A stretch of DNA of 63,134 nt, filler included, from Craspedostauros australis (lineage: Eukaryota), in NCBI GenBank assembly GCA_030167865.1. It is 16 parts of 16 records of this genome, joined end to end, with 100 filler letters (N's around TTAATTAATTAA, not from the genome) between each part and the next. Parts side by side here need not be neighbours in the genome. Positions count along the whole stretch, not along the records: positions 7,272 to 13,589 come from JALAGF010004782.1; 15 more parts are not named here. The stretch is one strand, 5' to 3'. Made by a program: the position numbers and the translations under genes. Positions within the stretch are counted from its first letter, which is position 1, and each line of letters starts with the position of its first letter. Shown piece after piece: positions 3,476-49,510 of this stretch. The notes beneath the pieces are model-generated. The model was not told the origin of the DNA. It made no database searches and worked only from the letters and a program-made list of their open reading frames with translations.

Positions 3476-3575
3476 NNNNNNNNNNNNNNNNNNNNNNNNN
3501 NNNNNNNNNNNNNNNNNNNTTAATTAATTAANNNNNNNNNNNNNNNNNNNNNNNNNNNNNNNNNNNNNNNNNNNN
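3476..3575. other. Artificial contig linker N44-TTAATTAATTAA-N44 (first of 15)
   Basis: The same six-frame-stop 12-mer starts at 3520, 7216, 13634, 21582, 26997, 32181, 35584, 40926, 45943, 48517, 50311, 54828, 56507, 58938 and 61770. Confidence 0.97.
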
Positions 3576-7170: not shown

Positions 7171-7271
7171 GNNNNNNNNNNNNNNNNNNNNNNNNNNNNN
7201 NNNNNNNNNNNNNNNTTAATTAATTAANNNNNNNNNNNNNNNNNNNNNNNNNNNNNNNNNNNNNNNNNNNN

Positions 7272-8100: not shown

Positions 8101-10212
8101 TCCATTTCGCAGCAGTTCTGAAGAAATGGAATACCATGATGGTAGAGTATGGTACCGTAGTCCGATTGTCTGATGGTCTATTATTGCATGCAGTCCTCAA
8201 AGGCATAATCGCACATGACCAGTGGTGAGATGGCTGGGCGCTCTCACTGTTGCTGTCGGTATTGGCCTTGGATTCTTCTCCTGGACGCACGAACGTTCCA
8301 TCTCCACTCTCCATGCATTCCAGACCACTGACCTGACGGTCGAGCTCGAAGACGGCTGCCATGCGGGTCTTGTCTGTGGCGTCAGTATCATGCGTTGGCT
8401 CATCGCCATTGGCAGTATTATGGCCATCGCCATATCCGTCGATGGCAACGGCCTTGAGCTTGAGCTGCTGAGCGAAGTTGGCAAAGGGCTCCGTGCCCAT
8501 CCGGATGATGCAGATGGATCCGTCGGTGCGATCGACGATGAGGACAGTTTCATCCATGCCTGGTTGGCTGAGAGCGGAGACGAAGATCTTCTGGCTGTCG
8601 TCACTTGCGACTTGCGGATCCAACGAGAATCGATGCACCTGACAGCTGGCGTACTTCCGGTTCTGCCGCTCCTGGTCTGACACCTGCTGCAGTCATTCGT
8701 GCAGAACCGTCGAGAAGGAGTGAGAGAAGCACGACTAGTCCACCACGGGGAACATCTGGCTGTCGTCTTGGTCCATGCCTCCAGCATTGGGACTGGTGCT
8801 ACTGCTGCTGCTGCTGCTGTTACGACTACTGCTATCATGTTCATCGTTCTTGTTCGTGTGGTCGTCGAAAAGACGGGAGGCCGAAGATCGAGAGAGAGTG
8901 TGGAAAAGCGGTGGGTTGGAGAGGTCGTGTTCTGTTCCAATGATACTCTGTATCGTTCATGCCTCGTTGTGTTGTTGAGTGATTCCATTGCTCTCCACAA
9001 GGGTGAATCACATCTTGGTCGATGAAGCCGAGTTCAATAAATCTGAAGGTTCGCCATGTCAGAACGTGAGTTTGATGCGCTTGTTGTGTCTTGGAGTTCT
9101 CAAAAGTCAGTCCGGAGAGAACTCTCCAACAGAACGATGATGCTTTCTTGGTGTCAAACGTTCTCGCAAGTGCCTCCGAAGTGCCACTGTTCTTTTGTTC
9201 GATCCAACACATCAACTGTTCCGACGAACGTGTCTGTGTTGCCGCATCACAGAAGAAGTGATTTCTTTGGCGATTGATTCGTTCGAGGGCGAGGCCCACC
9301 AAATCCAGTGGTTTGTTCTGGTTGTGGATCTTGTTGAGTTGGTAACACTTGGTTGGAATTTGGCGGATGCCGACCGACAACCACAAATTACCACGAGTGA
9401 GGAAACCATTTCCTCGCACAACCAACACATCCAACACATCCAACACAACCAACGTGCGAGTAGCATCGTGAACATCGATGCACCCGATGATGAGGCCATG
9501 GTCGATCTCCGTGGAGGCACCTCCTCCATCAAACACTTCGTCTCGCGCCCATTGCACTATGCTCACACCGTCATGGCCCATCCAATCAACGAGGGCGACG
9601 ACACCTCCAAGACGATCAGCAGCACCAGCACCAGCAGCCATCATGGATCGCCACACATGACACCCGACGTCTACTCCGGGAAAGGCATCACCTGCGGACT
9701 CCGCCAACCGCTTCGATGGAGGATGCAGGCTCGTTGGCAACACCTCCGGCTGCCAACCACGCAAGCCTTCACACCAGCGGCTACGACAAGAACAACTGCA
9801 GGAGTCATCGACCTCCGCCACGACCATCAACTTCCAACCACAGAGGAACCGCTCATCGATCGTGAGGATTAGGAGTAGATGCTGTCGAGGTTTCCGACGC
9901 ACGACCTCCCCCACATGCCCACCTCCGCTTTTCAGAAGCCAAACCGTCGGCATCGCAGCACAAGCGATGATGATGATGATGATGATGATGATCGTGACGA
10001 GGAGGAGGAGGATCCAACCCATGCGACTCCTGCTGCTGCTTCCGTCATTGAGCACGATGCTAATTGTGCCAATGATCTTGCCCAGCCCACCTTCACCCAG
10101 CAAGTGCAATTGATGGTGAGTGCGATGGGAAATGCTGTGCGGGATGACCATGACGACAAGGACACACAATCTGATGAGCATTGGCTCACGTGAATGATGT
10201 TGTCCGAATCGG

Positions 10213-11022
10213 ATGATGAAAGTCAGCTTGTTCCAAGGTCCCAAAAACAACAGCAACCGCAACCGCAGCAACCGCAACCGCAACGACAGCAACAACAATA
10301 GCCAACACCACGTCGAAACCTGCAGAAACTGTGCTCCCAACAACAGCACAGATCCCTACATCCTCAACAGCCTGCTGCCGAACGTCATCATCTGGAAGTT
10401 GCCCTTCTCCACAAATGGTGAATCAGATGCATCCACGGTCCAAAACGCAACAACGCTCTCCACATACGAATCAAGGAGTCTCACATCCTTTTCGCGCAGC
10501 TACTACACGGATGCCTCGTCGTCACACTTTGATGATGAGTCGGATCACAACAACAGTCGCACGCAGCTACTGCAAATGGTATACGAAACAGGCGACGAAC
10601 AATCTGAGCTCGTCATTCAAGAAGTCCAACGGAATCTCAAGCGCAACCCTGAGTCAAATGAGCCCGATGATGAGTGGTCCTTTCTGTCATCACCACTGGA
10701 GGGACCAGCCAGACAGCAGCCTCAACCACGCGCCCCGCCGATCCAGTCTCATGGGCGGGTCAAAAAGCTCTGCAGACTGAAGCAGGCCTACCTGCGATCC
10801 AAGAACCGCTGTGAGATTGTCATCGTCGATGGTGTTGCAGGCGTCGGCAAGACTGCCATCTGTCAACATTTCTTCGACAATGTGCACGACGCCACGCTGA
10901 TCTTGGGATATGCCAAGTTTGAATCGCCGATCGGGATGTCACCCGACATCCATCCATACGGACCCATCTGGACTGCCTTCGCCTCCCTCCTGCATCAGGC
11001 CACGCAACGGAACCCATCCTAG
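10213..11022 (+). pseudogene. Truncated STAND/AAA_16-type P-loop NTPase
   Basis: HGRVKKLCRLKQAY...VIVDGVAGVGKT (Walker A)...GYAKFE...PYGPIWTAF; stops before Walker B. Confidence 0.6.
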
Positions 11023-11530
11023 ATCCAACAGTATGTGCCGAAGGCTGCTGAGGCTCTTTGCGTCAGCCTTGCACAAACGCGCCACTTCATCTTCGTGGAC
11101 ACAATAACATAGAAATAGTGGTAGAACAGTTGTAGAACATACTAAAGGAAGAAGTCAATGTCATTCAATCATTGCGCTATGTTACTCTGTACTATCGTTT
11201 TTCTGTTGGCCTCAGGGCTTTGTTGTTTGTGTCCTGATCTGCACTAGTTGGAGGGGGCGGCTGCTGCTTGTGGGCCAGCAGCAGTTGCCGCTGTCGTCGT
11301 TGCGGTCAGCGTTGTCATTGTTTGCGCTGCTGCCGTTGTTTGCGTTGCTTCCTAATCTGCACTAGGCGGCGGAGCGGCGACGGCTGTTGCTTCTGGGCCA
11401 GCAGCACTTGCCGCTGTCGTGGGCGTCCTTGTCGTGGGCGTCCTTGTTGTCGGCGTGCATGGCTTAGCCATCTTCATGGCTGCCGCACGCGGAATCAATG
11501 AAGGGGTCCCGGAGGCAAAGAAGTCTTCTA

Positions 11531-11888
11531 TGTTAAAATAGCGCGCTGCGGAATCGAACCACGGAGCCAGTCCACGCCCTGCATGAACACAAGAAATTAA
11601 CGCTTATAACCCATGTCGCGACACCCTCCCTAATTCTTGGATTCATGCCCTTGAGCCCCCCTATCATGAGGACCCCCCACACTCTATCTTTATACTGCCG
11701 CTGTAGGCAGTCGGCAAGTTTCGGGTGTTTCTGTGTGTTTGTTGTAGCAGGGGTGGGTACCAGCCGACGGAATCGAACCTTAGGCCACGCTACCATGTTA
11801 AAATAGCGCGCTGCGGAATCGAACCACGGAGCCAGTCCACGCCCTGCATGAACACAAGAAATTAACGCTTATAACCCATGTCGCGACA
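11531..11888 (-). mobile_element. TRIM (terminal-repeat retrotransposon in miniature), 358 bp
   Basis: Identical 93-bp TG...CA LTRs at 11531-11623 and 11796-11888; TSD CTTCTA at 11525-11530 and 11889-11894; on the minus strand, PBS TGGTAGCGTGG right after the 5' LTR and PPT AGGGAGGG right before the 3' LTR. Confidence 0.92.
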
Positions 11889-11982
11889 CTTCTACACGTT
11901 CCTCGATTCGGTCGGCGGTACGTCGAAGAACATTTCTCGTCCCATTCCAAATCTGTTCGAACCAAGTGGGCCCATTCGAAGG

Positions 11983-12420
11983 CTACAAGCTCACTTCAGA
12001 GCGCTCCACTTCACCCTGCTCCTTACCCTGGCGTTCCTGTACATTGTTGAGGCCACTGCCGACTTGACGAAGCACCTGCTGTTGATCTTGAGAAGGGGCG
12101 TTGCGCAGGGCGTTGCGCAAGGCGCGGAAGGGATTGTTGTGATGTTTGACCAACATCACGAGCCCAGAAAAGTCTCGTCGAACGATGATGACCTCTCTTC
12201 CCCAGTTGCGTGGGTTCCTCTTGACCTTCTTTGCTGACTTCTTGAAACATGTCAACAATCTCTTCTTCTCCTCTTGCGTGAAGAGTGTTTCAAGGTTTTG
12301 GATTACCTGGGCAAGGAAGTCCTTCAGTAGGTCAAGGCTCCACCCAACTGCCTCGCAGCTTACAGCGAGATCCCAAAGTGCCTGAATGCGTCTTTTTTCT
12401 TCGTCTGTGAAAGTCACCAT
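11983..12420 (-). CDS. Hypothetical protein, possibly the 5' part of a gene interrupted by a stop and the TRIM
   Basis: 145-aa ATG-initiated ORF after an ACAAC-rich leader. The same frame stays open past the TAG and across the reconstructed empty TRIM site to about 11352. Confidence 0.4.
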   Translation of the reverse strand: MVTFTDEEKRRIQALWDLAVSCEAVGWSLDLLKDFLAQVIQNLETLFTQEEKKRLLTCFKKSAKKVKRNPRNWGREVIIVRRDFSGLVMLVKHHNNPFRALRNALRNAPSQDQQQVLRQVGSGLNNVQERQGKEQGEVERSEVSL

Positions 12421-13689
12421 GGTTGACGTTGTTGTTCAGGTGTGTGCGTGTGCTGATGGGGAGTGCTCCTTCAGATCAATCGTCGGTTGATGTGGAAGGT
12501 GTGTGTTGAAGATTTGTTGCGAAGTTGCTCCATTTATGAAGTGGCAAATGGAGGACGAGGAGAACAAGGAAAGAACTTGCACTTGCCGCGTTGTACCGCG
12601 TTGTCTTTGGCGCAAAGTCGGAGAGGAGCTCGATGTGAGTGTGCATGTTGTGCACTCCGTGCTTTGACGCCGCAGTTCCAATGCTCCTTCTAACGGTATT
12701 CCTCACATCCAAAGCTATGGCAGTTGACTTTGAGCAAGATGCGCACGAACTTGCGACGTGCAGAAAGCGTGGATGCACGATCGCAGTCGGCCGTTTGTGG
12801 TCCAGGTTTGTCTTTTTGAAATCATTGGCCTGTTGTTCATGGGCATGTTGACCACCGTGTTGGTGGCTTGTTCTGGCCTCTCCGTGTTGGGCGGAGATGT
12901 GGACAACAAGGAAGATACCAACGCCAACAGTGAGGGATGCGGATCCAATGTGCGTGACCGTTTCGATGGTTTGGACTTTTAGTCCATTGAATCAATCGCC
13001 GTGTCTCTCTCTCTGATGGATCCGTTGATTGATTGTTCGGTGGCATCAAGATACCAAAGCACACCATGTCCCCGCGCGTATTGTGCCACTCCGATTGGCA
13101 AAGTTCCAGGCTTCAAGCACACATCACACCACTCGAAGCGCCGAAGAACTGTATCGATCGGAGTGGTATCGTGGTCGACTCCCCCAAGACCATCACAGAG
13201 GGATGTGCCTACTCAGATAACACGGTCTATGGTATCACATGAAGAGGCACAACTGCACAGCGTGGACAAGTTGGGCACGATCGAAAGTCGTATCGTGCGA
13301 GCGAGCGAGCCAGCCAGCCTCGGATCATAATGTGGCTGTCCACGGTCGTATCACACCACACCATACCATACCACGCCATACCATACACAGTGGTGGAACT
13401 GCGCAAGTCCATGAAGGTGTGTTGACTGACGACACGTTGCTTCGTGATCCATGCACAAGATCATGGAATGGAGGACAGCAATCTTGAGCAAATGAGCTCA
13501 TAATTGCCATCCAAGCGCAACTGATTTGGGACCACATACCTACTCTACATACTCTGCCTGCTCTGTCAGCTCTACTCATACGATTGTGCNNNNNNNNNNN
13601 NNNNNNNNNNNNNNNNNNNNNNNNNNNNNNNNNTTAATTAATTAANNNNNNNNNNNNNNNNNNNNNNNNNNNNNNNNNNNNNNNNNNNN

Positions 13690-15633
13690 CCCCTGAGAGC
13701 GGTGCTCCGGAGGATCTGGCATCGCCGTGACTTCGGAGTCATCGGTCTCCTCAGAGATGTTACCCGTGGATGCTTCGCCGTCATCATCGGAGATGACGCC
13801 GTGTGCATTATGTTCCGGCATGTCGCCGTCGTTGGGAATTATGTTTGGTTGACCGAACCATCGGTCAGCCGTGCCTGCTGGNNNNNNNNNNNCGGATACG
13901 CCCCTGACCTCCTGCGTCTCCGGCTCCGGTGGACCCGCCGCCGCCCCTGACTGCACAGCAATCGCGTCGATGGCCTCGCGGACCTGTCGAGCGAGTTCCG
14001 CCGGCAATGTCTTGGTCCTGGCGCGTTCGCCGGATTCGCCGCGCGTAGTGGTGTGGATGATATCGAGTCGAGCGATGCGGTTGATCTCCGCGTCCGTGAT
14101 GCGTGGAGGAATGGCGTCTTCGACGACACGCGGCTTGACGATGTTGCGCACAAGCGCGGTGCCCTTCGTGATGTCATCGCCTCGTGGCGACCATACGGTG
14201 TAGGTGAATGGGTCGCCGTGGTTCCATGCGATGCCAAGGAAGTACCCTGGCTTGAATGGATGGTGGGGGAATTTGGTCATGGGTTCGAAGAACCATACGG
14301 GCTGGAAGAACGTGAAGCGAAACATCGAGATGTCGGGAGTGTTTCCTCGAAGAATCTCGATTGGAGTGCGCCATTGGAGGCTCGCCTTCGCCGTGTAGTT
14401 CCATGTGTCGATCGCGTGTTGCACAGCATAGCACCAGAATGAGAGTGGCGCCGAGGCGGCCCACAGAAGCTGGTATGCATGCCGCTTGACATCACCGATC
14501 GCTCGTTCTGCGTGATTCTGGTTCTGATTCATTGGCACAGTGAACTGGTGCTTGATCAAATAGCGGGATGTGACCGCTTTCCATGCCTTGCCCGATTGCA
14601 CCTGCGAATTGTCTGATACGAGTAGGTCCGGAGCGCCGATGCGGATGATGAAGTCCGTGAGCGCCCCTGGCGCCATGGCCTCGCGGCCCAATGGCTTCGC
14701 CCAGATGAATTTCGATTGTTGGTGTGAGAATAGCTGGAAGCATTTGTAGTGCCGGATGGACTGGACGGTGGAGAAGAACGTGTCCGTGTCAACTCTGCCG
14801 TCGATCCTGTTGGGCTGCAGCACTCCTGCTCGCTGCGCTCGATACTGCCGCGGGATAAGCCTTGACTCTGCCTCGATCGGAGTATCCGCCAGCTGAGTGG
14901 ATGCCACCATTGTCTTCTCCACCACGTGTGGCGGAAGGTGCCTGAAGATTCGCGTGAAATCGACCCGACCTGCGTTGCGTCGCAGACGCTGATGTCTGTC
15001 GCATATAATGATATGCTGCGCCGTTGCCATCTCGTGGGCTGTCGGCTTTCTGATGGGAATTCTGAGCGTGGTGCCTTCATGGTTCTCCAGCGGTATGCTG
15101 ATTTCGTCCGATGAGACCCGCTGCTGTCCCTGATGTTCGATTAGGCGATCGTAGACGTTCAGTCCGGACGCGCGCATATGATGTGTGTTAAACAGTGATT
15201 CCGTCTGCTGTGGATGCTTGTCGAGAGCCACGTAGTTCGCTTTGATGAGGATCACGCCGCCTGATGGGGGCTCGTATGCTGCCACCGCGTCAACCATCTG
15301 GAATGTCTCGATTGGTGAGCTGATTGTCGCCCCTCGGGCACGAAACTCTTGTTGGTGTGTGTGGGTCACCTCCCAGCCCGACGCATGAACGATGTCTCCG
15401 TCCGCCCCTGAGTCTAGGACGATAAAGCCTTGGCTATTGTTCGTTACTCTTGCCCTTCGGATGCAGTGCTCCACTGTCAGGTGGGTTGTGCACGGACGGG
15501 ACTCTTGTGGTGCCACCGGACGTGCACGTCCGGGCATTCCCGCTGCGGTTGTCACGCTCGCCCCCCTACAGTCGCGGGGTTTGAGGTGGATGACAATCTC
15601 CGACTGACGGCGAGTTGTGCCCGTCTTTGATTG
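13690..15633 (-). CDS. pol: Copia-type Pol (aspartic protease then integrase), 3'-truncated by the contig end
   Basis: IVLDSGAD protease motif; integrase VDTDTFF...LVSDNS...NQNHAERAIG...FWCYA; PR-IN order. Confidence 0.9.
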
Positions 15634-17031
15634 TCAAGAACCGGCGTTCCATGNTCCTTGGGTGCNGGGTCGTCCGGTCTTGTGGTCGCCCGTGCNAGGC
15701 CGCTTGGGNCCTCGCTGGGTCAGTGGCAACTCGAGGTTGCGCGCNTACTCTGTTGGCTTGTTGCGCTTGAGTGTGTCTTCATCGATTGNNTTCCCGGTGG
15801 TNCGGAAGTGACGAGACGCTTCGACGAGGAGCACTTGAGTGCTCGCCGGCATGCNACNGAAGACGGAGTCCGGCAACCGAAATGATGCGGCGCCCTTGCG
15901 ATCCCACTTGGAGGATTCGCGTGGCCTCTTGCGGTCGTCCTTGGTGTCCTTCTGCTGGTAGCAACGGTTGCGCTTGGGAGAGTAGTGCCCTTCCGACTTC
16001 GCGAGGAGCGCATCATGTTGCATGAATGCCTCCCGGATGGCGGAAAAGGACTGTTCCGTGTGACGGAACCTGGACATCTCGCTCGTGAAGCGATCGTCCG
16101 TGATGTTGCGGAAGAACTTTGCGATCTTCTGTTGGTCTGTCATTTGCTTCCCGTTCTGCTCCATGACGCGGATGCATTTGGAGAAAGCGTTGACGAATAC
16201 TGGGAAGGGCTCGGATCCGTCGTAACGGAGCTCGGCGATCTTCTGTTCTTCTTCGACGATGGCTTCAGCTTTGTGTTCGGGCGACTCGTATGTTCGCACG
16301 AGTGCCTGGAACGCATCGTGTCCGTTGGGTTCGTGGGCTTCCACGATGAACGCTGCACATCCATCCGCCGTCTTCGTGTGCAGCACCGTGTACAGCTGCT
16401 GGTCGATCTCGTCCTCGAAGTGTGACGGTTTGTCTGCGCTGAGGTACGCGGCGTATCTGGATGTGACCAGTTGGCGCTTGAATGCGATCTTCCAGTCATA
16501 CCAGTTGCAGTTCATTCCAGTGAACTCGGGTGCTTCCGGCATGCTGACCTTGTCGAACTTCCATCCTGATGGAGTTCGCGGGGTCCGTGGTGATCTTGAT
16601 GTGCGTGTCGCGCGGCTCGGGGAGCTGACGGTGATCTCGCGGCTGGTCGCGACTGTCATCTCCGCTGCTGCGGCTGCCTCTCTGATCGCGATTTCCGATC
16701 GAACTTGAGCGGCTGCGTTTGCGACTGGCGTGCTGACTTCTGGCGGCACGTAGTTGTTCGCGTCGTTGAACAGGTCAATTGCTGCCCAATCCGTGCGCGC
16801 AGTGATCGTGTTGGCTCTTGCGTACACGAAGATGCGGAGGATGTTGGTGATGCTGATTGCCGACAGCGTTGGCGAAAGCGTCAACGCCGCCACGATGGTC
16901 GCGTCCGAGTTGCGGATCGCGCGATCGAGTCTCCCGAGCTTCTCACCGAGGAACTCCATCTCTTCATCATCGAGCTGAACCAGCTCTTGGATGATCTTGT
17001 TGAAGGTGTTGATGTTGGTTGGTCGGTCCAT
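15634..17031 (-). CDS. gag: Gag of a diatom copia-like (CoDi-type) LTR retrotransposon
   Basis: PEFTG...WYDWK, LYTVL...GHDAFQALVRTYE...LRYDG capsid-like motifs; likely start MDRPTN at 17031; in frame with pol. Confidence 0.85.
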   Translation of the reverse strand: MDRPTNINTFNKIIQELVQLDDEEMEFLGEKLGRLDRAIRNSDATIVAALTLSPTLSAISITNILRIFVYARANTITARTDWAAIDLFNDANNYVPPEVSTPVANAAAQVRSEIAIREAAAAAEMTVATSREITVSSPSRATRTSRSPRTPRTPSGWKFDKVSMPEAPEFTGMNCNWYDWKIAFKRQLVTSRYAAYLSADKPSHFEDEIDQQLYTVLHTKTADGCAAFIVEAHEPNGHDAFQALVRTYESPEHKAEAIVEEEQKIAELRYDGSEPFPVFVNAFSKCIRVMEQNGKQMTDQQKIAKFFRNITDDRFTSEMSRFRHTEQSFSAIREAFMQHDALLAKSEGHYSPKRNRCYQQKDTKDDRKRPRESSKWDRKGAASFRLPDSVFXXMPASTQVLLVEASRHFXTTGXXIDEDTLKRNKPTEXARNLELPLTQRXPKRPXTGDHKTGRPXTQGXWNAGS

Positions 17032-17093
17032 GGTGATAGCTCGTAAGACGGTAAAAGGGTGGTGTGGTGTTGGGTGTTGCTCAGTGTTGGTAA

Positions 17094-17108
17094 GCACGAC
17101 TCTTAATC
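17094..17108 (-). promoter_or_regulatory. Primer binding site complementary to the tRNA-Lys(CUU) anticodon arm (half-tRNA type)
   Basis: Plus strand reads GCACGA-CTCTTAA-TC (stem, CUU anticodon loop, positions 39-40), abutting the LTR end. Confidence 0.65.
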
Positions 17109-17278
17109 TGTCAAACAGTGCAAGTAACTACGAAAGACGTATTGGCCCGTTGTTTCGTGCCCTGGTCGGAGCTCTTGNTGTTTATTTGTGAGTGCTGTCC
17201 GAAGACAGCCCCCGACCAGTATTTGACTAATAGGATTAGTAAAGAAGTAAGAAGTAAGGAATTCTGTGAGAATTGTCA
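17109..17278 (-). mobile_element. Putative 5' LTR (about 170 bp) of the copia-like element
   Basis: TG...CA bounded (minus strand TGACAATT...TTTGACA) and followed by PBS and gag. The outer boundary is tentative because the second LTR is not in the contig. Confidence 0.55.
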
Positions 17279-22118: not shown

Positions 22119-22419
22119 CTGAATGAACGAAGTGTTGAATGTGGAGTACGCATCGAACACGGAGTATTGTGTAGCACGAAGTACACGATGTTGAGAGAGA
22201 GAGAGAGAATACAGAGAGGAGCGAGAGAGGATCTCGCGTACCAACTCATAGTTGGAGACTGAATCTACAAAGCAGATTGAAGCGCCGAGAGCATCGGGCA
22301 AGAGAGCTGGTGTACACCAAGAGGATCGGAGTAGCCAACTATTGAAATAGCAAACGAACGACTATCAACCAACACCACCTTCCACGATCGTAGGTTTCCG
22401 TGAGCGGAACTTGCCAACA
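22119..22419. repeat. Dispersed repeat, probably an LTR end (also at 56563-56857; terminal motif at 48706-48725)
   Basis: About 300 bp of clear similarity ending in GTGAGCGGAACTTGCCAACA, with unrelated flanks beyond. Confidence 0.75.
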
Positions 22420-23456
22420 GCCAACACCACTCTCCATCATTGCCGTGCTCTTTGAGTGGGGCATGGACTGGGACACCACTCGTGCATGAGCGGTTATTCC
22501 TCCCCCATGCACTATATTGAGACAACCCAAACAAAGATGAGCGTTGGAAGAGCAGTTGAAGCACATGGAGCAGTTGTGCACGGTGGCTGCTTTGTTTCGC
22601 GACGTTGAGTGTGTCGCGAAATTGTGTCGTCTGCCCGTGAGTACGTTTCATTCACGAATGTTTGGCCCAAAATCNAGTTCGAGAGGGTCTCGGATCCGTG
22701 AACCAACCAGAAATGTACCGAATCAGTCTCATTGACAAAAACACACAAGAAGAAGAACAACGCAAAAAACGCACTCACAAAGGCCCTATTAGAGATAGCT
22801 TGGCCATTTTCATCACCTCATAACTTTATAACCAAAAGCTGGACTCACTGTTTAGCACCTGGTCCTTATTACCAATTTGTTAAAGTATATATGGTTAGAT
22901 TTTAGTCTCCATAGGAGCCCACTTTTTCAGAATCCTGCCGTGGTCGTACGGTCATTGGCTAACGTGGGTCTTTTGGTAGTCCTCAAATTAAAAATCGGCA
23001 CGAACGTACTACTACTGCGCTCAGCAATAATTTACAACACAGTAACGCTGTTTGTTGCCGAATGAGAGTTTTTTGTTGTCACGACCAGTTCTTTTGGGTC
23101 TCCGGTAATTCAACTTTTTCATTAGTTTCGAGATTTGAACATCCCCGACTCAGCCATTGTCATGTCCACGCTCGCCCTCACGAAACACAAGTCGGCTGCC
23201 ATCATCACTTTGCCCAATACAATTGATTGACTCCTTGCCTTGACCAACCCTACTATTATGAAATTCATGCTTCTAAATTGTGTAGCTTCAGCTTCATAGT
23301 GCATCTGCCTTCGTTTTTGCAGATCTCAGGTACCTGCATTGGAGTGCGTCTGGATTCAGTTTCCTTCTTTGCTTGTTTGCGTTTGGGTTTCGAGTTCATC
23401 ATTTCTCGTTTGGCTTTCTGCGTTGCTTCGTATCGGGTATCGTAGAGCTTGGCAAG

Positions 23457-25620: not shown

Positions 25621-27931
25621 AATATGAGCTGGAGTCTGTTTGTAGAGTGTGCTAATTAGTTGTTGAAATTGGAGACTTTTAGATGTAATATTACATGTAA
25701 AGGTGTTGATGGCTTTGTTTTGAAGTTCTGAGTGTTGGCAGGCCTCAGAATGTGGTGGACGCGCTCAAGAAGCGAGATTAACTCATGGCACCGGCATCGG
25801 GTGTGGATGGACATCTGGTTTGTGGTGGAGGTTTGGAGGCATTCGTTGGAATTCTGTTGGAATCCCCCATACCCCAGCAGCAACAAAAGACCGTCACCAA
25901 GAAACCCCACACAACAACACGACAATGAGGAAACAAAACAAGACTCAGCAAGGACCCTCAAATGCCATGAACGGCATCGCAACAACCATCAACCCAATTC
26001 CAAACCCAAGCACATCGATGGAACCGCCATGGGAATATTGGTGGATGGACAAGAGGGCGCTGTCAGAGTGGTCCAATTGAGAGATCGATAGCGCAAAGAG
26101 CGAAAGGCGCAAAAAGGTGGCAAATTTGCACGTTGGGTACAGGTTGCGCGTGGACGATGCAAGCCATTCCGACAACCATGGCTGGCAAGACGCATCGAAA
26201 AGATCAAGATGAAGGTACCCACGAAGTTTGAGGCTCATGGATGGCCTGGAAGGTGTCGATGGAGGGGAACAAGTGGAGGGCAAGAGTTTTTTGGGGGGTG
26301 CTCATGCACCCATCGCGTGGCTTTGCTGGTGTGGTGGCGCATGTGAACATCCATCATATCGCCATCCCACCCATACAAGATATCTTCATCATCAAGTCAG
26401 GAATGGGGTGGAGAAGTGTGTCTCAATCTGATTGAGTGGAAGAGGTTGAAATGAAGCAAATGTGGCAGTCGCATTTTTTCGACATGAAGAACAACTGGCT
26501 GTGGCGTCAGCATCAGGATGGATAAAAATGTGGAGATCCATCTTGAGGCAATTTGGGATGCATCAACGTGTCCCCAACGAATCAGGGATCGAGGTGTGCT
26601 GCATGGGGGGAACAGAGATGGTTGTGAACAGGAGATATGATGGGACAAAGCGGCTGCTTCTGGACTGTTCTGCATTGTCAAAAATGTTGGTTTTCAGCAA
26701 TGGGCCAAAAAGGTGCATTGAAGCGGCATCGATCTGAGCATTCTTGTCAGGGATGGATACATATGGAGTGTATGGAGACAATGAGGTGTGCAGGCGGACG
26801 AAACGAGATGGTTATGGGCATCATCTTGGATGGCAAAGTGATGGCAGCATGGTGCCATCCAGAGTTTTGTGCCGCACACAATCGCACGCGATCAACAAAA
26901 ATGATGTTAAATTTAAAGTTAATTTAAATTTAAATTCAATATTCCTCTACTTNNNNNNNNNNNNNNNNNNNNNNNNNNNNNNNNNNNNNNNNNNNNTTAA
27001 TTAATTAANNNNNNNNNNNNNNNNNNNNNNNNNNNNNNNNNNNNNNNNNNNNAAATATTCTGGTGCTCAAAGCAATGCATTTTGTGTGCAATGCATTGGT
27101 ACCATATGATGAATCGGTGCCAAGCTGTTGTTTCTTGCATCTCAGGACCAATTCGCCTCAGGGTGCATGTCTTGAGCAATGCTCCAGCTTGACAACTTGG
27201 CCAAAGGCATCATTGGATAAAAGATGTGCGGCATTGGCATCAACACTGAGCCATCGCACACATCTCCAGCATGATGCGTGATCCAGTCTCAGCTGTGTCG
27301 TCCGTCAGCTTCACGTTTCTGTACAACGCGTGCATCCTCCACTCGAACTTGTTCAGATGGGGGAATTGAAGCACCAGCCACCGCGCTCATCATCTTGACG
27401 GCATTTGCGGAAGGAGGTGTGCTCAGGCGGATATTGCTATTGTGGTAGTCGGATATCATGGTGTGCGAGGTGTTCTGTGGGAAGTGCACAACAAGGGAAA
27501 CGAGCGTGATGGAAAAGCTATCACAGCAACCAAGTCGCTCGCACCAACAGTCAAGCCGTTGGAGACACATCCTGCGATCCGGCACAGTTTGGGACGACCA
27601 GGGAAGCTTCTATCGAATGACTCAATGGACTCAAGAAAATCGAGTTCGATCGCGCGCATTCCTTCTTCGTGTTTCTTTCGTGTTGTTTGTGTGTGTGTGT
27701 GTGTGTTTGTGGTCGATGTGGAGAAAGATCTTGTGCCAAACCAGAGCGCGATCATGGAACAGAGAAACAGAACGTGCGAACAAGACAACGACAACCTTGC
27801 TATTCCTTGCAACAGTTTGGTCTCATACTATCGAGAAACACAGTCTGTATCTTCATCATAAGACCGTGAACACATTGAGCAATCATCCAGTAATTGTTTG
27901 TCTACCAACAGCTCAACAACCAACGACCAAC

Positions 27932-29440
27932 ATGCCGAATGTCTCAGACGAACAACTCCTTGAAGCTGCTGAGATAGGTGATCTGTCGGTGTTGAAGGAA
28001 TGGAAGAAGCAGAACGAAGGACGTGATGTCAACACGGTCAAAGGCGGCTACTTTGGCAGCACTCCACTTCATTGGGCATGCTACAACGGCCACCTGGAGT
28101 GTGTGAAGTACCTCATCGAAACATGTGAGGCGGACATCAACTGCAAAGACAATGATGGCTGCACTCCCCTTCATCAGGCATGCTACAACGGCCACCTGGA
28201 GTGTGCCAAGTACCTCATCGAATCAACCAACGCCGATGTCAACTGCAAAGCCAACAATGGCGACACTCCACTTCATCGAGCATGCTTGCACGGCAGCCTG
28301 GGATGTGTGAAGTACCTCGTCGAATCAACCAAGGTCAATATGGACATCCAAAACAACGACAACAAAACACCCGTCGAATTAATCAGCGCGAACAAGCAGG
28401 TCAAGATGATGACATCAATCATGAAGCGTCTCGGTCATCTCAGCCAACGCAACTTGCAACTGCAGACGCAGCTGCAAATAGAGATGCAGGTGCGCAAGCA
28501 AAGCCACACAAACACCATCACAACACCAACCAAGCACGACAATCCTAAAATCCACACAACAACCAACACCAGCATCGGCCAAGATCGTCGCAGCGCTGTT
28601 CGGTCTGAGGCCAAGGCAGACATCACCTTCCTGTGCGGACACGGCGACGAACAACAGCCAATCAAAGCAAACTCCGGAGTCCTCATGGTCACTGTTCCGT
28701 CCATTCAGACATTGATCGACTCGGGAATCCAACATCAGCACGTCGATGACGGCACTGATGACGGCACTGATTCTGCCACTGCCCTCACCCGCAGGCTCAT
28801 CTCTCTTCCCAACCATCAACCCAAACATGTCCAACGCGTCCTCGAATGCATCTACACAGGTGAGATATCCTTCGATCACAGTGCTCCGGACAACGATACT
28901 GATACCCGCGATGGCGCTCATGATGATGATGATGGCGCTGACCAGCCAACTCCCACCCTTGATGGACAAGACGAGCTACAACAGCTGATCCTTGTGGCCA
29001 ACGAGTTCGGCTTCTGGCGACTCAAGCTTGTTCTTGAAGCAGAGTTGGCACGCACTCATCTCACAGAGGACACCATGGTAGATATGGTGATCTTCGCCAA
29101 TCAACATGGCTGTTTACTGTTGAAAGATGCAGCAATGAGGCTGGCAGCTGCGAATATACAGACCTTCTTCGCTCGGAAAGATTGCAGCAAGTTGTTTCAA
29201 CACCCTCAACTGCCGGGAGAGATCCATGCCATCTGCAGTGGGGGAGCGGTAAGCAATGAAGCTGATGATGAGTACAGTGCCATGTCCATGATGGATTTGT
29301 ACAAGGTCGTGGATGAAAGTGAGGGTACTGCGCAAGTGGATTCATACATGGATCGTGCAACGTTGGTGAACTTCGTGCGGTCCGTCGCACCTTCCAGGGT
29401 GGCTGAGGCCGATGGCGCTGCCGCTGGAGAAGAGGAGTGA
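27932..29440 (+). CDS. Ankyrin-repeat + BTB/POZ domain protein (502 aa)
   Basis: Repeats of G.TPLH.AC.NGHLECVKYLIE, then BTB ADITFLCG...VLECIYTG...LVANEFGFWRLKL...LLKDAAM; probable start MPNVSD. Confidence 0.9.
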   Translation: MPNVSDEQLLEAAEIGDLSVLKEWKKQNEGRDVNTVKGGYFGSTPLHWACYNGHLECVKYLIETCEADINCKDNDGCTPLHQACYNGHLECAKYLIESTNADVNCKANNGDTPLHRACLHGSLGCVKYLVESTKVNMDIQNNDNKTPVELISANKQVKMMTSIMKRLGHLSQRNLQLQTQLQIEMQVRKQSHTNTITTPTKHDNPKIHTTTNTSIGQDRRSAVRSEAKADITFLCGHGDEQQPIKANSGVLMVTVPSIQTLIDSGIQHQHVDDGTDDGTDSATALTRRLISLPNHQPKHVQRVLECIYTGEISFDHSAPDNDTDTRDGAHDDDDGADQPTPTLDGQDELQQLILVANEFGFWRLKLVLEAELARTHLTEDTMVDMVIFANQHGCLLLKDAAMRLAAANIQTFFARKDCSKLFQHPQLPGEIHAICSGGAVSNEADDEYSAMSMMDLYKVVDESEGTAQVDSYMDRATLVNFVRSVAPSRVAEADGAAAGEEE

Positions 29441-35539: not shown

Positions 35540-35639
35540 NNNNNNNNNNNNNNNNNNNNNNNNNNNNNNNNNNNNNNNNNNNNTTAATTAATTAANNNNN
35601 NNNNNNNNNNNNNNNNNNNNNNNNNNNNNNNNNNNNNNN

Positions 35640-38600
35640 GGGTGCACTGGACTCCGTTGGCGCTTGTGATGGCATGTCAGATGGAGCCACAGACTCTGTT
35701 GGTGCCTGGGAAGGCAGATCAGACGGTGCACTGGACTCAGTTGGTGCCTGCGAAGGCATGTCAGATGGCGCCACGGACTCAGTTGGTGCCTGAGAGGGCA
35801 GATCAGAGGGCGCGTTGGAATCAGTCGGTGCCTGGGAGGGCAGATCGGATGGCGCCACGGACTCAGTTGGTGACTGTGACGGCATGTCTGAAGGCGCCAC
35901 TGAATCGGTCGGCGCCTGCGATGGCAGATCGGAAGGCGCACTGGAGTCGCTCGGCGGAGCTGATCCTGTTGGGGTGGACGATGGTGCGCTGGAATCACTC
36001 GGTGCGCTGGACTCTGTCGGTGCCTGAGAGGGCATGTCTGATGGCGCCACGGACTCTGTTGGTGCCTGAGAGGGCAGATCCGATGGCGCACTGGACTCAG
36101 TTGGTGCTTGTGATGGCATGTCCGATGGCGCCACGGACTCTGTTGGTGTCTGTGACGGCAAGTCTGATGGAGCCACAGACTCTGTTGGTGCCTGGGAAGG
36201 CAGATCAGAGGGTGCGCTGGACTCCGTTGGTGCCTGCGATGGCATGTCTGATGGAGCCACAGACTCCGTTGGCGCCTGCGAAGGCAAATCGGACGGCGCC
36301 ACGGAATCCGTCGGAGCCTGGGAGGGCAGATCAGAGGGTGCACTGGATTCAGTTGGTGCCTGTGATGGCAGGTCAGAGGGCGCGCTGGATTCGGTTGGTG
36401 CTTGGGAGGGTAGATCCGATGGCGCAACGGACTCCGTTGGTGCTTGGGAAGGCAGATCCGATGGTGCGCTGGACTCCGTTGGCGCTTGGGATGGTAGGTC
36501 CGATGGCGCCACCGATTCTGTTGGCGATTGAGAGGGCAAGTCTGATGGTGCTACGGACTCCGTTGGTGTTTGGGAGGGAAGATCCGATGGTGCGACGGAA
36601 TCTGTTGGTGCCTGCGATGGTAGATCAGAGGGTGCCACGGACTCGGTTGGTGCTTGGGACGGCAAGTCCGATGGCGCCACTGATTCAGTTGGTGCCTGGG
36701 ACGGTAGATCGGAAGGCGCACTGGACTCTGTCGGGGTCTGTGATGGCAGATCAGAGGGTGCTACGGACTCGGTTGGTGCTTGAGACGGCAAATCCGAAGG
36801 CGCGACAGACTCCGTGGGAGCCTGAGATGGCAAATCTGATGGCGCCACAGACTCTGTGGGGCTCTGTGATGGCAGATCCGAAGGTGCGACGGACTCCGTT
36901 GGTGCTTGCGACGGCATGTCGGAAGGTGCGACGGACTCGGTGGGAGTCTGCGAGGGCAGATCAGAAGGCATGATGGATTCCGTTGGTGTTTGGGACGGCA
37001 TATCAGACGGCGCCACAGACTCGGTGGGAGTCTGCGATGGCATGTCTGAGGGAGCCACAGACTCGGTTGGTGCTTGAGACGGCAAATCCGAAGGTGCGAC
37101 AGACTCCGTCGGAGCCTGAGATGGCAAGTCTGATGGCGCCACAGACTCTGTCGGTGCCTGTGAGGGCAGATCCGAAGGTGCGACAGACTCCGTCGGAACC
37201 TGAGATGGCAAGTCTGATGGTGCCACAGACTCTGTCGGTGCCTGTGAGGGTAGATCCGAAGGTGCGACAGACTCCGTTGGTGCTTGCGATGGTAGATCCG
37301 AAGGCGCGACAGACTCCGTCGGAGCCTGAGATGGCAAATCTGATGGCGCCACAGACTCTGTCGGTGCCTGTGAGGGCAGATCAGAGGGCGCAATGGACTC
37401 AGTCGGAGTCTGGGACGGCATGTCGGACGGCGCCACGGACTCGGTGGGAGTCTGCGAGGGCAGATCAGAAGGCATGATGGATTCCGTTGGTGTTTGGGAC
37501 GGCATATCAGACGGCGCCACAGACTCGGTGGGAGTCTGCGATGGCATGTCTGAGGGAGCCACAGACTCGGTTGGTGCTTGAGACGGCAAATCCGAAGGTG
37601 CGACAGACTCCGTCGGAGCCTGAGATGGCAAGTCTGATGGCGCCACAGACTCTGTCGGTGCCTGTGAGGGCAGATCCGAAGGTGCGACAGACTCCGTTGG
37701 TGCTTGCGATGGTAGATCCGAAGGCGCGACAGACTCCGTCGGAGCCTGAGATGGCAAATCTGATGGCGCCACAGACTCTGTCGGTGCCTGTGAGGGCAGA
37801 TCAGAGGGCGCAATGGACTCAGTCGGAGTCTGGGACGGCATGTCGGACGGCGCCACGGACTCGGTGGGAGTCTGCGAGGGCAGGTCCGAGGGCGCGACAG
37901 ACTCCGTTGGTGCTTGGGACGGCAGGTCCGAAGGCGCCACGGACTCCGTCGGAGTCTGCGATGGCATGTCGGACGGCGCCACTGATTCGGTCGGGCTCTG
38001 TGATGGCAGATCAGAGGGTGCGACAGACTCCGTCGGAGCCTGAGATGGCAAATCTGATGGCGCCACAGACTCTGTCGGTGCCTGTGAGGGCAGATCAGAA
38101 GGTGCCACGGACTCCGTCGGTGCCTGCGACGGCATGTCGGAAGGTGCCACGGACTCAGTGGGAGTCTGCGAGGGCAAGTCTGATGGTGCGCTGGATTCCG
38201 TTGGTGCTTGAGATGGCAGATCAGAGGGAGCCATGGACTCTGTCGGAGTCTGGGACGGCATATCGGAAGGCGCAATGGACTCTGTCGGTGCTTGGGATGG
38301 CAGATCAGACGGCGCAATGGACTCAGTCGGAGTCTGCGACGGCATGTCTGATGGCGCCACAGACTCCGTCGGGGTCTGGGATGGCAAATCCGAAGGTGCC
38401 ACGGACTCGGTTGGTGCCTGGGACGGCATATCAGACGGTGCTACAGACTCAGTGGGAGTCTGCGAGGGCAAGTCTGATGGTGCGCTGGACTCCGTTGGTG
38501 CTTGAGATGGCACATCAGAGGGAGCCATGGACTCAGTTGGAGTCTGGGACGGCATATCGGACGGTGCCACTGACTCTGTCGGTGCTTGGGATGGCAGATC

Positions 38601-40634: not shown

Positions 40635-40981
40635 CTTGGTGTTGCGTTTGCGGAGTTCAGATCGGAGAGGAGTGTGCTTGTGTATCGCAGAGTGCGTTTG
40701 TGCTCGCTGTGACAATCGTACTGGTTGCTGCTGGCTGCTGATACTGGTACTGAAAGTGATCGTCGTGGTTTTGTGATCCTTGTTGCGCGTTTGTCCCTTC
40801 TGCCTTTGGCTCTCAGCCTTCACTTACAACTTCACCTGCTTTTTGTTTGCGGTGGCGTGATGCACGCACTTTGTGAGTGGGNNNNNNNNNNNNNNNNNNN
40901 NNNNNNNNNNNNNNNNNNNNNNNNNTTAATTAATTAANNNNNNNNNNNNNNNNNNNNNNNNNNNNNNNNNNNNNNNNNNNN

Positions 40982-48470: not shown

Positions 48471-49510
48471 ATNNNNNNNNNNNNNNNNNNNNNNNNNNNN
48501 NNNNNNNNNNNNNNNNTTAATTAATTAANNNNNNNNNNNNNNNNNNNNNNNNNNNNNNNNNNNNNNNNNNNNATAGTCGGAGAGACGCACCAAGAGCATC
48601 AGGCAGAGCAACAAGAGGCACCAAGAGGATCGGAGTGCCAATGTAATGAAATAGCACACAGAACTGTAACAATCACTACCATCACCTACAGTTGCAAGAA
48701 TATCTGTGAGCGGAACTTGCCAACATGTATTATGTGAGCTGTGCGCTGCGCACCGCGAAACGCACAGCCAACACCTATTTGAGGACCACATGGGCGTTGC
48801 ATTAATCGCAATGGCGTCATAAGGTGAGAATGATGGTGCACCATGGCAAAGAGGAGCAATGATCCAATGGGCGTGAAGGAAGTAGAGTCACACAGCAGAG
48901 TAGCATCTGGCCAATAGATGGCGAACAATGATGACACTATAGTGGAGTCTACAATAGTACTGCATTGCACAATCGCACTCTGCTGAAGTCAACGCCGCGC
49001 ACTTCTCTCCCGCAAGATGAAGGAGCACTACCGCTTAGCAGACACACACACAAACTACCAGACAGACTAACAAGACAACACAAGATACTGACATGAAGGC
49101 ATACCCTACAAGACCGATAGAACTGAAACCGAAGTCGGGATTGATGTCACATGATGGGAAGAACCCGGATCTAGTTTTCCTGTTGGACGAAAAGAGACAT
49201 TAATAAGGATGTTGGATTTTACCGCTGCTTTGTCCGTTGGGCATGGCCGGCGGACACATTTCCGCCTGGTCGGCGTGATGGCTGAATCCTTTCCGGTCGG
49301 AGTAGTATGGTACAGTGCTTCATCTCCAATCTCTATCCGGTTGCAGTCTGATTACCGGAAACATGCTGTGACACTTGTGCCACAGCCGAATCGTCCATTG
49401 CACCGTCGTAATAGGACCACGTCGTTTGTATGACAGGATTGCAGGTTTTGTGAAGTCTAATACTGTGCGTTATTGTTGTATTGTATTTCTCCATACTGTT
49501 CCTCATATCC

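Follow-up and report, generated by a model that had tools for sequence, protein, structure and literature searches.

A short non-coding LTR retrotransposon with B-box-bearing, tRNA-like modules around its primer-binding site in a diatom-type genome

A short LTR element in a diatom-type genome carries three perfect B-boxes, and the locus raises the question of what such pieces of a small-RNA gene do in LTRs: whether they act as promoters, as structure around the primer-binding site (PBS), as primer mimics or as binding sites for TFIIIC. The original prediction regarded the element as a young, tRNA-type analogue of the Cassandra elements that might be transcribed by RNA polymerase III (Pol III). 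The explanation found to be best, to which a probability of about 0.6 is given, is that it represents a young multi-copy miniature LTR retrotransposon (TRIM) of the Helenus type with a truncated tRNA part, mobilised by copia-type proteins, in which the motifs persist as structure of the PBS leader.

Structure, copies and possible partner of the element

The element is 358 bp long and occupies positions 11531-11888 of the window (the whole stretch of 63,134 bases that was analysed). It is bounded by two copies of the hexamer CTTCTA, at 11525-11530 and 11889-11894, which directly abut the LTR ends. The two 93-bp LTRs (11531-11623 and 11796-11888) are identical at 93 of 93 positions, and both start with TG and end with CA; these termini were compatible with a 6-bp target-site duplication (TSD) alone. 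The sense strand of the element is the minus strand, the only one on which a PBS and a polypurine tract (PPT) exist. The PBS, TGGTAGCGTGGCC (11795-11783), lies immediately 3' of the minus-sense 5' LTR (11796-11888) and was the single match in the window at no more than one mismatch; by analogy, it is probably of the initiator-tRNA(Met) 3'-end type. The G-rich PPT, AGAATTAGGGAGGG (11637-11624), read from the sequence, lies immediately 5' of the 3' LTR (11531-11623).

The 172-bp interior (11624-11795), with a TATAAA at 11689-11694, contains no recognisable gag or pol, and no similarity to it was found elsewhere within the window. On the minus strand, a stop-free frame of 111 codons extends across the element (11533-11868); the two LTRs are not read in the same frame within it, and it was treated as a chance occurrence. 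In-silico excision of the element left several short frames running across the empty site and did not clearly restore a long one. A scan of the region for bacterial-type promoters and terminators gave nothing relevant. Terminal direct repeats with TG..CA ends and a TSD in the range of 4-6 bp are the features of an LTR retrotransposon; a length below 1 kb, the absence of gag and pol and the presence of multiple copies are those of a TRIM. The intact, young TRIM of the original prediction was therefore borne out in its identical LTRs, its TSD, its canonically placed PBS and PPT and its non-coding interior, the stop-free frame being noted. The element is a real, recently inserted non-coding LTR retrotransposon. 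One full copy of it was read.

Evidence for further copies came from the public run X1, with 8 of the 14 matching contigs examined. One contig (11689-11888) breaks off precisely at the LTR terminus, position 11888, and another extends from 11623, the end of the LTR, for 255 bases into a different flanking sequence. A junction contig spans 11594-11660, and two variant contigs cover 11631-11687. As these several contexts and variants indicate, the element is not a singleton, in agreement with the expectation of more than one copy. The word depth was 45-147 for the element contigs and approximately 6 for the flank contigs, a depth that is not a copy number. Together the X1 contigs amount to 12.2 Mb, and their coverage of the flanks is fragmentary, so the run was suspected to be a transcriptome, which is a guess. 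X1 was the one public run listed for the stretch, and no run recorded as RNA was listed as containing it, which says nothing about expression. In metagenome contigs, the exact 22-mer of the LTR module gave 0 matches; in viral contigs, neither this 22-mer nor the PBS junction was matched. Two metagenome loci (L001 and L002) recovered with a gapped pattern of B-box, spacer, LTR end and PBS proved to be the same AT-rich stretch, with neither LTR nor tRNA, and were rejected as chance matches.

Because the element has no genes of its own, its copying would depend on proteins supplied by an autonomous LTR element. Since the PBS appears to be of the initiator-tRNA(Met) 3'-end type, this partner would most likely be a Ty1/copia-type (diatom CoDi-like) element. 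The prediction had envisaged a partner with the same termini and PBS, but none sharing the PBS or the LTR was found within the window. Copia-type elements are present in the same genome, as illustrated by the ORF at 13645-15633 on the minus strand. This ORF has 6 homologues at E ≤ 0.001, one with RVT_2 and one with chromo, and the atlas clusters closest to it comprise Bacillariophyta polyprotein families and gag_pre-integrs/rve families. For the neighbouring ORFs, the Pfam search gave no family at E ≤ 1 besides a stray Muc_B2 match, and comparison with PDB sequences gave nothing meaningful. The neighbouring pol protein had 5 pattern matches among viral contigs, 0 of which were confirmed, and no longer relatives of the upstream AAA_16 ORF were found.

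B-boxes and the question of Pol III transcription

The 11-mer GGTTCGATTCC occurs at 11550-11560, 11769-11779 and 11815-11825, in each case on the minus strand. The pattern GGTTCGANTCC has three matches in the 63,134 bases, all of them in the element, against 0.14 expected, and at least three matches were reached in 0 of 100 shuffles. The three perfect B-boxes that had been predicted are thus present. Equally well founded was the description of each LTR, in which GCAGCGCGCTA and a subsequent TTTT (T4) come after the box. The gap between box and TTTT is exactly 11 nt, which is the register of a tRNA, with a T-stem portion of 3 nt, an acceptor strand of 7 nt and a single discriminator nucleotide. 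In the 5' LTR, the module (11800-11828, minus strand) reads CGTGG TTCGATT CCGCA GCGCGCT A TTTT, with the B-box at 11815-11825 and a TATAAG at 11868-11873; in the 3' LTR, the module at 11535-11563 has its B-box at 11550-11560 and its T4 at 11535-11538, with TATAAG at 11603-11608. The tRNA-like content of the LTR is limited to the T-arm, the 3' acceptor strand, the discriminator A and the TTTT, which would be the remnant of a tRNA gene retained at each U5 end. What may be a second module of this kind, TAAGG TTCGATT CCGTC GGCTGGT A CCCA, lies on the minus strand just downstream of the PBS (11754-11782) and contains the remaining B-box (11769-11779). The 3' ends of tRNAs or SINEs corresponding to the modules would be ...GGTTCGATTCCGCAGCGCGCTA followed by T-runs, or ...GGTTCGATTCCGTCGGCTGGTA.

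These boxes could be functional Pol III or TFIIIC elements that give rise to a short LTR RNA or to the template RNA (as would befit a genuine TRIMp3, a TRIM with a working Pol III promoter), or that recruit TFIIIC by the B-box only; this possibility is considered rather unlikely. It would account for the confinement of the perfect B-box matches to the element and for the position of the T4, which is exactly where the trailer of a tRNA gene starts. The TATAAG ends 43 nt upstream of the first base of the LTR B-box and could set the start site, as an upstream TATA can do for Pol III in some organisms. However, no box A is available at a usable distance. The box A pattern TRGCNNANNNGG has 0 matches in the element, all 6 window matches being located elsewhere. 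The sole box-A-like string, TGGCTCCGTGG, is fused directly to, or overlaps, box B and carries C where the consensus TRGCNNANNNGG has A, a residue that presumably corresponds to position 14 in tRNA numbering. Accordingly, the arrangement of box A upstream of box B that is a feature of most Helenus families was absent from the element, and the predicted Pol III promoter was not supported.

Other properties of the LTR were ambiguous or unfavourable with respect to transcription by Pol III. There is a single T4 in the 265-nt unit, as would suit a Pol III transcript, but 83% of shuffles have one or none, so this is unremarkable. Moreover, because the T4 is upstream of the PBS, most Pol III transcription initiated in the LTR would end short of the interior, and a template RNA would need read-through. 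Neither the RNA of the LTR (z = +1.29) nor that of the 50-nt module (z = +0.74) folds better than shuffles, and no tRNA was detected by ARAGORN or Infernal. The version without box A was seen repeatedly among the X1 contigs, which suggests that the element has spread without a full type-2 promoter. In the sections of the article consulted, Kojima (2024; PMC10886601) argued that Helenus LTRs are Pol III promoters, but this role was itself argued from conservation only. That the element is read by Pol III is unproven; TFIIIC binding by the B-box only, or weak TATA-assisted Pol III transcription of an RNA of approximately 40 nt, may still take place.

The U5 and leader modules form a direct repeat that has GCGTGG...GGTTCGATTCCG in common. 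The repeat score was 25, compared with 15.0 ± 3.0 in shuffles, 11 of 2000 of which reached 25. The 12-mer GGTTCGATTCCG is thereby kept intact in two independent places, a point in favour of Pol III or TFIIIC function. Its retention as a direct repeat, where a pure hairpin would be expected to preserve the complement, points to selection acting on the motif and runs against the view of the motifs as a relic.

tRNA ancestry, the PBS hairpin and the primer

The tRNA-like nature of the LTR, for which the prediction had suggested tRNA searches, was not recognised by them: ARAGORN reported 0 tRNA genes on the window, and Rfam/Infernal gave no tRNA at E ≤ 10, including in a search of 156 bases. Across the whole window, nothing reached the Rfam gathering score. 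The best match belonged to the tRNA/tmRNA clan (tmRNA) and was weak (16.7 and 13.6 bits, the gathering score being 70), extending over the T-arm and the U5/PBS stem; its place over the T-arm is in line with tRNA ancestry. No 5S match was obtained in the Rfam search, and no ribozyme family was present among the matches at E ≤ 10, so the LTR hammerhead of a retrozyme was not found. The full cloverleaf, made up of acceptor, D, anticodon and T arms, is absent, and the locus does not have the make-up of a tRNA gene or pseudogene. Because there was neither a tRNA-family match nor a cloverleaf, tRNA ancestry rests on approximately 30 nt.

The element could alternatively be an ordinary TRIM of no tRNA ancestry, the B-box-like strings being functionless products of chance or local duplication. 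The lack of a tRNA-family match agrees with this, as do the imperfect T-stems (4/5 and 3/5 pairs, counted by eye); since one module is a direct repeat of the other, two apparently independent boxes may also reflect one event. However, even one perfect 11-mer was expected only about 0.14 times in the 63-kb window, and the box stands in the exact tRNA register together with a terminator. Its position in the LTR is that of the tRNA part of Helenus: the arrangement from box B to T4 near the LTR 3' end, followed by the PBS, matches the Helenus layout by eye. An origin with no tRNA is considered improbable.

Pairing of both modules and the PBS into a single long hairpin of 38 bp with the loop UUAACAU (11747-11847, minus strand) is predicted for the RNA. 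Its minimum free energy (MFE) was -46.5 kcal/mol, compared with -35.9 ± 3.4 kcal/mol for shuffles (z = -3.08), and 1 of 200 shuffles was as good. In this MFE fold, which comes from a single sequence and carries no covariation, the PBS is buried and two B-boxes lie opposite each other. On the preferred reading, the motifs would be a relic that now serves the PBS leader structure and not a classical Pol III promoter composed of box A and box B.

The hairpin also brings the U5 module and the PBS together: the module end CGCGCUA pairs with UAGCGUG of the PBS, and 9 U5-PBS pairs are located at the hairpin top. With a CCA tail, the match between module and PBS would reach 10 pairs, 9 Watson-Crick and 1 G-U, counted by eye. 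In addition, the LTR module ends with T72-A73, as does the RNA specified by the PBS. The module might consequently mimic the 3' end of the primer tRNA, either as a CCA-tailed small-RNA primer or as a mask that covers the PBS in cis until the real tRNA is placed. Kojima sought such complementarity in Helenus and, in the sections of PMC10886601 consulted, found none, which argues that it is not a general by-product. If mimicry were true, a parasite's parasite would bring its own primer or its own switch for masking the PBS, and the mimic would have been made from a captured tRNA-gene fragment including the Pol III terminator.

Several features make this mimicry very doubtful. The PBS continues with GGCC past the match to the module, which suggests that another RNA fits it better; the tRNA 3' end giving a full PBS match would be ...GGCCACGCUACCA. 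The module has no 5' acceptor strand and would for this reason be a poor substrate for tRNA end processing. As judged from the general mechanism of priming, the hairpin would leave no template between primer and PBS, as self-priming in cis after the manner of Tf1 would require. Finally, complementarity of 7-9 pairs in a single sequence, beside the palindromic AGCGCGCT, could be due to chance. A non-mobile origin by local, partial tandem duplication of a 265-bp unit, of which the region contains 1.35 copies, is scarcely credible given the TG..CA ends, the canonical PBS and PPT, the 6-bp flanking duplication and the X1 contigs that stop at the LTR end or enter another flank.

Relation to known elements

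The element would be a non-autonomous miniature LTR retrotransposon, inserted on the minus strand, of the kind that Kojima (2024) named Helenus. Helenus elements are TRIMs with tRNA-derived LTRs, for which the class name TRIMp3 was introduced; according to the sections of PMC10886601 consulted, as for all further statements on Helenus, they occur in fungi, animals and a lycophyte. The novelty claimed for a tRNA analogue of Cassandra was therefore forestalled by this 2024 publication. The element shares with Helenus the gene-less order of LTR, PBS, PPT and LTR in miniature, and its 358 bp lie inside the Helenus range of 311-1263 bp. Box B is found in the 3' part of the LTR with a T-run a few bases before CA, and by eye the LTR end has the same order of tRNA-like part, few nucleotides, T-run, few nucleotides, CA and PBS. 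The form of the PBS and PPT resembles that of Helenus families with iMet-type PBSs: some Helenus families were assigned 3'-end iMet priming, the interiors of some fungal families start with tggtagcg (supplement of PMC10886601), and the present, probably iMet-type PBS starts with TGGTAGCG, as in some rust-fungus families. The G-rich PPT (compared by eye with the supplement) and the TGT...ACA frame of the LTR are further likenesses.

The differences from Helenus concern mainly the tRNA part. Most Helenus families have a box A (TRGCY...YGG) upstream of box B, and many of their LTRs are called tRNA by tRNAscan-SE, whereas the present LTR contains no more than what looks like the final third of a tRNA gene. 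The LTR is 93 bp long, compared with 120 bp for the Selaginella LTR, the shortest among the families looked at. Further differences are a second tRNA-like module downstream of the PBS, complementarity between the LTR module and the PBS, and a diatom-type host genome. At 6 bp, the TSD contrasts with the 5 bp reported for fungi and the plant and the 4 bp reported for animals (PMC10886601), a discrepancy that speaks against the Helenus assignment.

Diatoms, stramenopiles and Bacillariophyta have 0 mentions in the text and supplement of PMC10886601. The excerpts of the diatom CoDi paper (PMC2806351) make no reference to PBS, tRNA or TRIMs. The titles and abstract openings of the literature on diatom terminal-repeat retrotransposons revealed no diatom TRIM, and among the matches listed for Helenus/TRIMp3 from 2024 on, none concerned diatoms by title. 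A text search of the literature with the PBS and its complement returned unrelated PCR primers only. The idea of a tRNA-bearing TRIM is thus not new, and what remains is the first diatom-type example together with its variant features. Diatoms are stramenopiles, and if the finding were confirmed genome-wide, Helenus/TRIMp3 would be extended to diatoms and a further eukaryotic lineage would be added. It would also mean that such an element can go on spreading after the loss of box A.

Like Cassandra of plants (5S rRNA) and Ajax, the 5S TRIMs of nemerteans, which make up the remaining TRIMp3 groups, the element carries in its LTRs a piece of a small-RNA gene transcribed by Pol III, but the source is tRNA-like and not 5S. 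In Ajax, as here, the gene is kept in part only, yet Ajax retains the promoter part (sections of PMC10886601), whereas the element retains the part that excludes box A. For Cassandra, Pol III transcripts have been shown experimentally, per the introduction of PMC10886601, whereas for the present element they would be hypothetical.

The predicted hairpin has parallels among other retroelements. In Ty1, Ty3 and retroviruses, sequences flanking the PBS pair mutually or with the T-arm of the primer tRNA, and the PBS is placed in a stem. Pairing of the PBS flanks and a PBS held in a stem are likewise predicted here, but the flanks resemble sense copies of a tRNA 3' half. Tf1 primes itself by a self-complementary part at the RNA 5' end; in the present element this part adjoins the PBS, and the geometry of the U5-PBS complementarity accordingly differs from that of Tf1-type self-priming.

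With the tRNA-derived SINEs (SINE2), the element has in common a tRNA-type internal promoter motif, a T-run, a short length and multiple copies. It differs from them in its LTRs, PBS, PPT and integrase-type TSD and in having no box A, LINE-like tail or poly(A). Scattered B-boxes and tRNA-like ends of this kind can confuse the annotation of tRNAs and SINEs.

Structure and copies of the element

The LTRs of the 358-bp miniature element were 93-bp direct repeats (11531-11623 and 11796-11888), which were identical at 93 of 93 positions, and both copies began with TG and ended with CA. CTTCTA flanked the element outside both LTRs (11525-11530 and 11889-11894), and since a one-base shift of the LTR borders broke this duplication, the TSD was 6 bp long. 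The sense of the element was the minus strand, with the 5' LTR running from window position 11888 down to 11796. On this strand, a primer-binding site (PBS) of the TGG-start type, TGGTAGCGTGGCC, adjoined the 5' LTR, and a polypurine tract, AGAATTAGGGAGGG, closed the 172-bp interior, abutting the 3' LTR; on the plus strand, neither was correctly placed. The identical LTRs, the TSD, the PBS, the polypurine tract and the interior length of the original prediction were all borne out. Candidate Pol II signals were TATAAG, at positions 16-21 of the LTR, and an interior TATAAA. A frame of 111 codons free of stops (11533-11868, minus strand) spanned nearly the whole element, with the two LTRs in different frames, and was probably due to chance. 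The left flank (11227-11444) was repetitive, with direct repeats 45 and 28 nt long at a spacing of approximately 120 bp and short tandem units of 18 and 15 nt.

An RNA matching the PBS would end ...GGCCACGCUACCA, with U at position 72 and A at position 73, which is the pattern of eukaryotic initiator tRNAs. Allowing up to one mismatch, the PBS string did not recur in the window. In the supplement of PMC10886601, the form TGGTAGCG... also opens the interiors of some rust-fungus families of Helenus, a TRIM class, and priming by the 3' end of initiator tRNA(Met) was assigned to some Helenus families and to a Copia element (PMC10886601).

No second copy of the element was found within the 63,134-base window. 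X1, a public run consisting of contigs, whose kind (RNA or DNA) is a guess, contained one third of the words sampled from 11000-12400; the comparison covered 10600-12800 and the 8 records listed of 14 matching ones. A 200-base contig corresponded to 11689-11888 with 1 difference and terminated precisely at the last LTR base, a 67-base contig spanned the other LTR-interior junction (11594-11660), and 11631-11687 was present in two alternative contigs with 0 and 1 differences. Another contig matched the LTR up to the LTR end (11623), beyond which it carried 255 bases unlike the window locus. Contigs of the flanks (11338-11514, 0 differences; 12129-12447, 7 differences) had a word depth of about 6, and those of the element had a depth of 45 to 147, which represents neither copy number nor expression level. 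Among the X1 records listed, the element therefore had more than one variant and stood in more than one sequence context, and it was not a singleton.

tRNA-like modules and the predicted hairpin

The B-box GGTTCGATTCC was located at all three predicted places, in each LTR (11550-11560 and 11815-11825) and behind the PBS (11769-11779), always on the minus strand. In minus sense, the 5' LTR ended with ...GGTTCGATTCC GCA GCGCGCT A TTTT AACA, directly followed by the PBS. When this U5 end (the LTR module) was placed in tRNA register, T-stem CGTGG, T-loop TTCGATT and T-stem CCGCA (4 of 5 pairs) were followed by an acceptor 3' strand GCGCGCT, a discriminator A and TTTT. The T4 run began 11 nt after the B-box and thus exactly at the start point of a tRNA gene trailer. 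The leader module after the PBS (11754-11782) showed the same register, TAAGG TTCGATT CCGTC GGCTGGT A and then CCCA; its T-stem was poorer than that of the LTR module (3 of 5 pairs), and its end was close to mature CCA.

ARAGORN detected no tRNA anywhere in the window, and Rfam gave zero matches at gathering score for the whole window and no tRNA match at E <= 10 in searches of 1401 and 156 bases. The sole match at E <= 10 was a weak one to the tmRNA clan, covering the T-arm and the next stem (16.7 and 13.6 bits; gathering score 70). The box A pattern TRGCNNANNNGG matched 6 times in the window and 0 times inside the element. The nearest look-alike, TGGCTCCGTGG, had C in place of the consensus A (position 14 in tRNA numbering) and ran directly into box B, as though a deletion had removed tRNA positions 20-51. 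The likeness to a tRNA 3' arm with a terminator was limited to the T-arm, acceptor strand, discriminator A and T4, all in register. Folding of the LTR RNA (z = +1.29) and of the 50-nt module (z = +0.74) was no better than that of shuffled sequences.

Sequence beginning in the middle of the 5' LTR, crossing the PBS and reaching into the leader (11850-11740, minus strand) was predicted to form an imperfect hairpin of 38 pairs, a structure additional to the original prediction. Its energy in this single-sequence prediction, which carries no covariation support, was -46.5 kcal/mol, compared with -35.9 +/- 3.4 for 200 dinucleotide shuffles (z = -3.08; 1 shuffle equalled it). At the predicted top, the LTR module end CGCGCUAUU paired with the PBS part GGUAGCGUG, and at the base, GCAGGG paired with CCCUGC. 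Below the top, the opposed B-boxes formed pairs at 8 of their 11 positions, the motif being nearly palindromic. As direct repeats (GCGTGG ... GGTTCGATTCCG), the arms had a local score of 25 against 15.0 +/- 3.0, reached by 11 of 2000 shuffles; as inverted repeats in a DNA alignment, they were unremarkable, with a score reached by 300 of 2000.

Relation to Helenus and alternative explanations

The element showed TRIM anatomy, was present in more than one copy and carried tRNA-type motifs in gene register. Its category has been known since 2024: Helenus comprises TRIMs 311-1263 bp in length with tRNA-derived sequence in their LTRs, found in rust fungi, some Agaricomycetes, six animal phyla and Selaginella, and the name TRIMp3 unites it with the 5S-bearing groups Cassandra (plants) and Ajax (nemerteans) (Kojima, Biology 2024, PMC10886601). 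In the consensus sequences in the supplement of that paper, the tRNA-like part in the LTR 3' half is followed by a few bases, a T-run, a few bases, CA and the PBS, and by eye the LTR end of the element had the same layout. New with respect to Helenus are the host lineage, the presence of a second module behind the PBS, the truncated tRNA part (most Helenus LTRs retain box A, TRGCY...YGG, and box B, GGTTC), the 6-bp TSD (5 bp in fungi and the plant, 4 bp in animals) and an LTR module complementary to the PBS, a relation that Kojima sought in Helenus and did not find (PMC10886601). The text and supplement of PMC10886601 do not mention diatoms, stramenopiles or Bacillariophyta. By title, no diatom work was among the matches listed for Helenus or TRIMp3 since 2024; by title and abstract opening, none of the papers listed for terminal-repeat retrotransposons in diatoms describes a diatom TRIM; and PBSs, tRNAs and TRIMs are absent from the passages covered of PMC2806351, the principal article on Copia-like elements of diatoms.

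The preferred explanation, with a probability of about 0.6, is that of a truncated Helenus-type TRIM in which the motifs are retained as a relic and as leader structure. A Ty1/copia-type element would copy the TRIM in trans, and host initiator tRNA would serve as the primer. The tRNA part may go back to the capture of a tRNA gene or tRNA-SINE by an ancestral LTR, as proposed for Helenus, and may later have been stripped of its 5' two thirds. The strongest argument against this explanation, and in favour of selection on the motif itself, is that an identical 12-mer was present on the same strand in both hairpin arms, whereas a pure hairpin would favour the complement of the 12-mer.

That the B-boxes are working Pol III/TFIIIC elements is rather unlikely; for Helenus itself, Pol III transcription was proposed on the basis of conservation (PMC10886601). 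The box-A-less form was present in several X1 contexts, so its spread was independent of a complete type-2 Pol III promoter. T4 precedes the PBS, so Pol III transcription from the LTR would mostly yield a dead-end product, an RNA about 40 nt long, and a template RNA would require read-through of T4 or a different polymerase. These two points favour the relic and leader explanation over working Pol III/TFIIIC elements. A chance origin of the motifs is less probable still: the B-box consensus GGTTCGANTCC had no further match in the 63,134-base window, and shuffles gave a mean of 0.14 matches, with at least 3 in 0 of 100, although two of the three B-boxes are LTR copies of each other and there are thus two independent occurrences. 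The boldest proposal, that the LTR encodes a primer mimic and the element brings its own primer, which the module-PBS pairing would suit, has a yet slighter chance of being correct. A non-mobile duplication is hardly credible beside the TSD-flanked LTRs and the several contexts in X1.

Possible helper element and other features of the window

The window was eukaryotic nuclear DNA with ankyrin/BTB, RRM and AAA_16 genes. Two adjoining long ORFs (663 and 497 codons; 13645-17127, minus strand) encoded a diverged Ty1/copia-like pol. They shared the strand of the element, were separated from it by about 1.8 kb in the window and were interrupted by N blocks. Pfam assigned no family to these ORFs; 6 homologues were found at E <= 0.001, with RVT_2 in one and chromo in one. 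The nearest atlas clusters were polyprotein families whose commonest recorded phylum was Bacillariophyta, and the next were gag_pre-integrs/rve/SH3_retrovirus families. Homologues and clusters show that copia-type elements exist in the genome, and they support the diatom origin named in the original prediction. The window self-comparison revealed no LTR pair around these ORFs. This pol copy had no LTR, PBS or interior in common with the element and is therefore at most a candidate helper.

A short distance upstream of the element, a plus-strand ORF (10198-11019) encoded an AAA_16 P-loop protein, for which a search for longer relatives found none. An X1 contig was 89% identical to this region over 10727-11114 and probably represents a paralogue.

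A 1743-codon open frame (35595-40823, minus strand) was built from a tandemly repeated unit of 42 bp (14 residues), present about 95 times, APSTTPSQTPTKSA-like and with abundant Pro, Ser and Thr; it encodes a mucin-like repeat protein, to which Pfam assigned no family. A pattern of 44 N, 12 bases and 44 N recurred at intervals of a few kilobases, at about 20 places (e.g., 3476-3575, 7172-7271 and 13590-13689), and looks like an assembly or masking artefact rather than biology; the window contained 2365 N in total, including scattered single N. The ankyrin and BTB ORF (27449-29437, plus strand) had an inverted partial copy of 624 bp with 77% identity close to the end of the window (61084-61680, minus strand), and a dispersed repeat family of about 300 bp with 74-87% identity was located at 22119-22420, 48584-48725 and 56563-56858.
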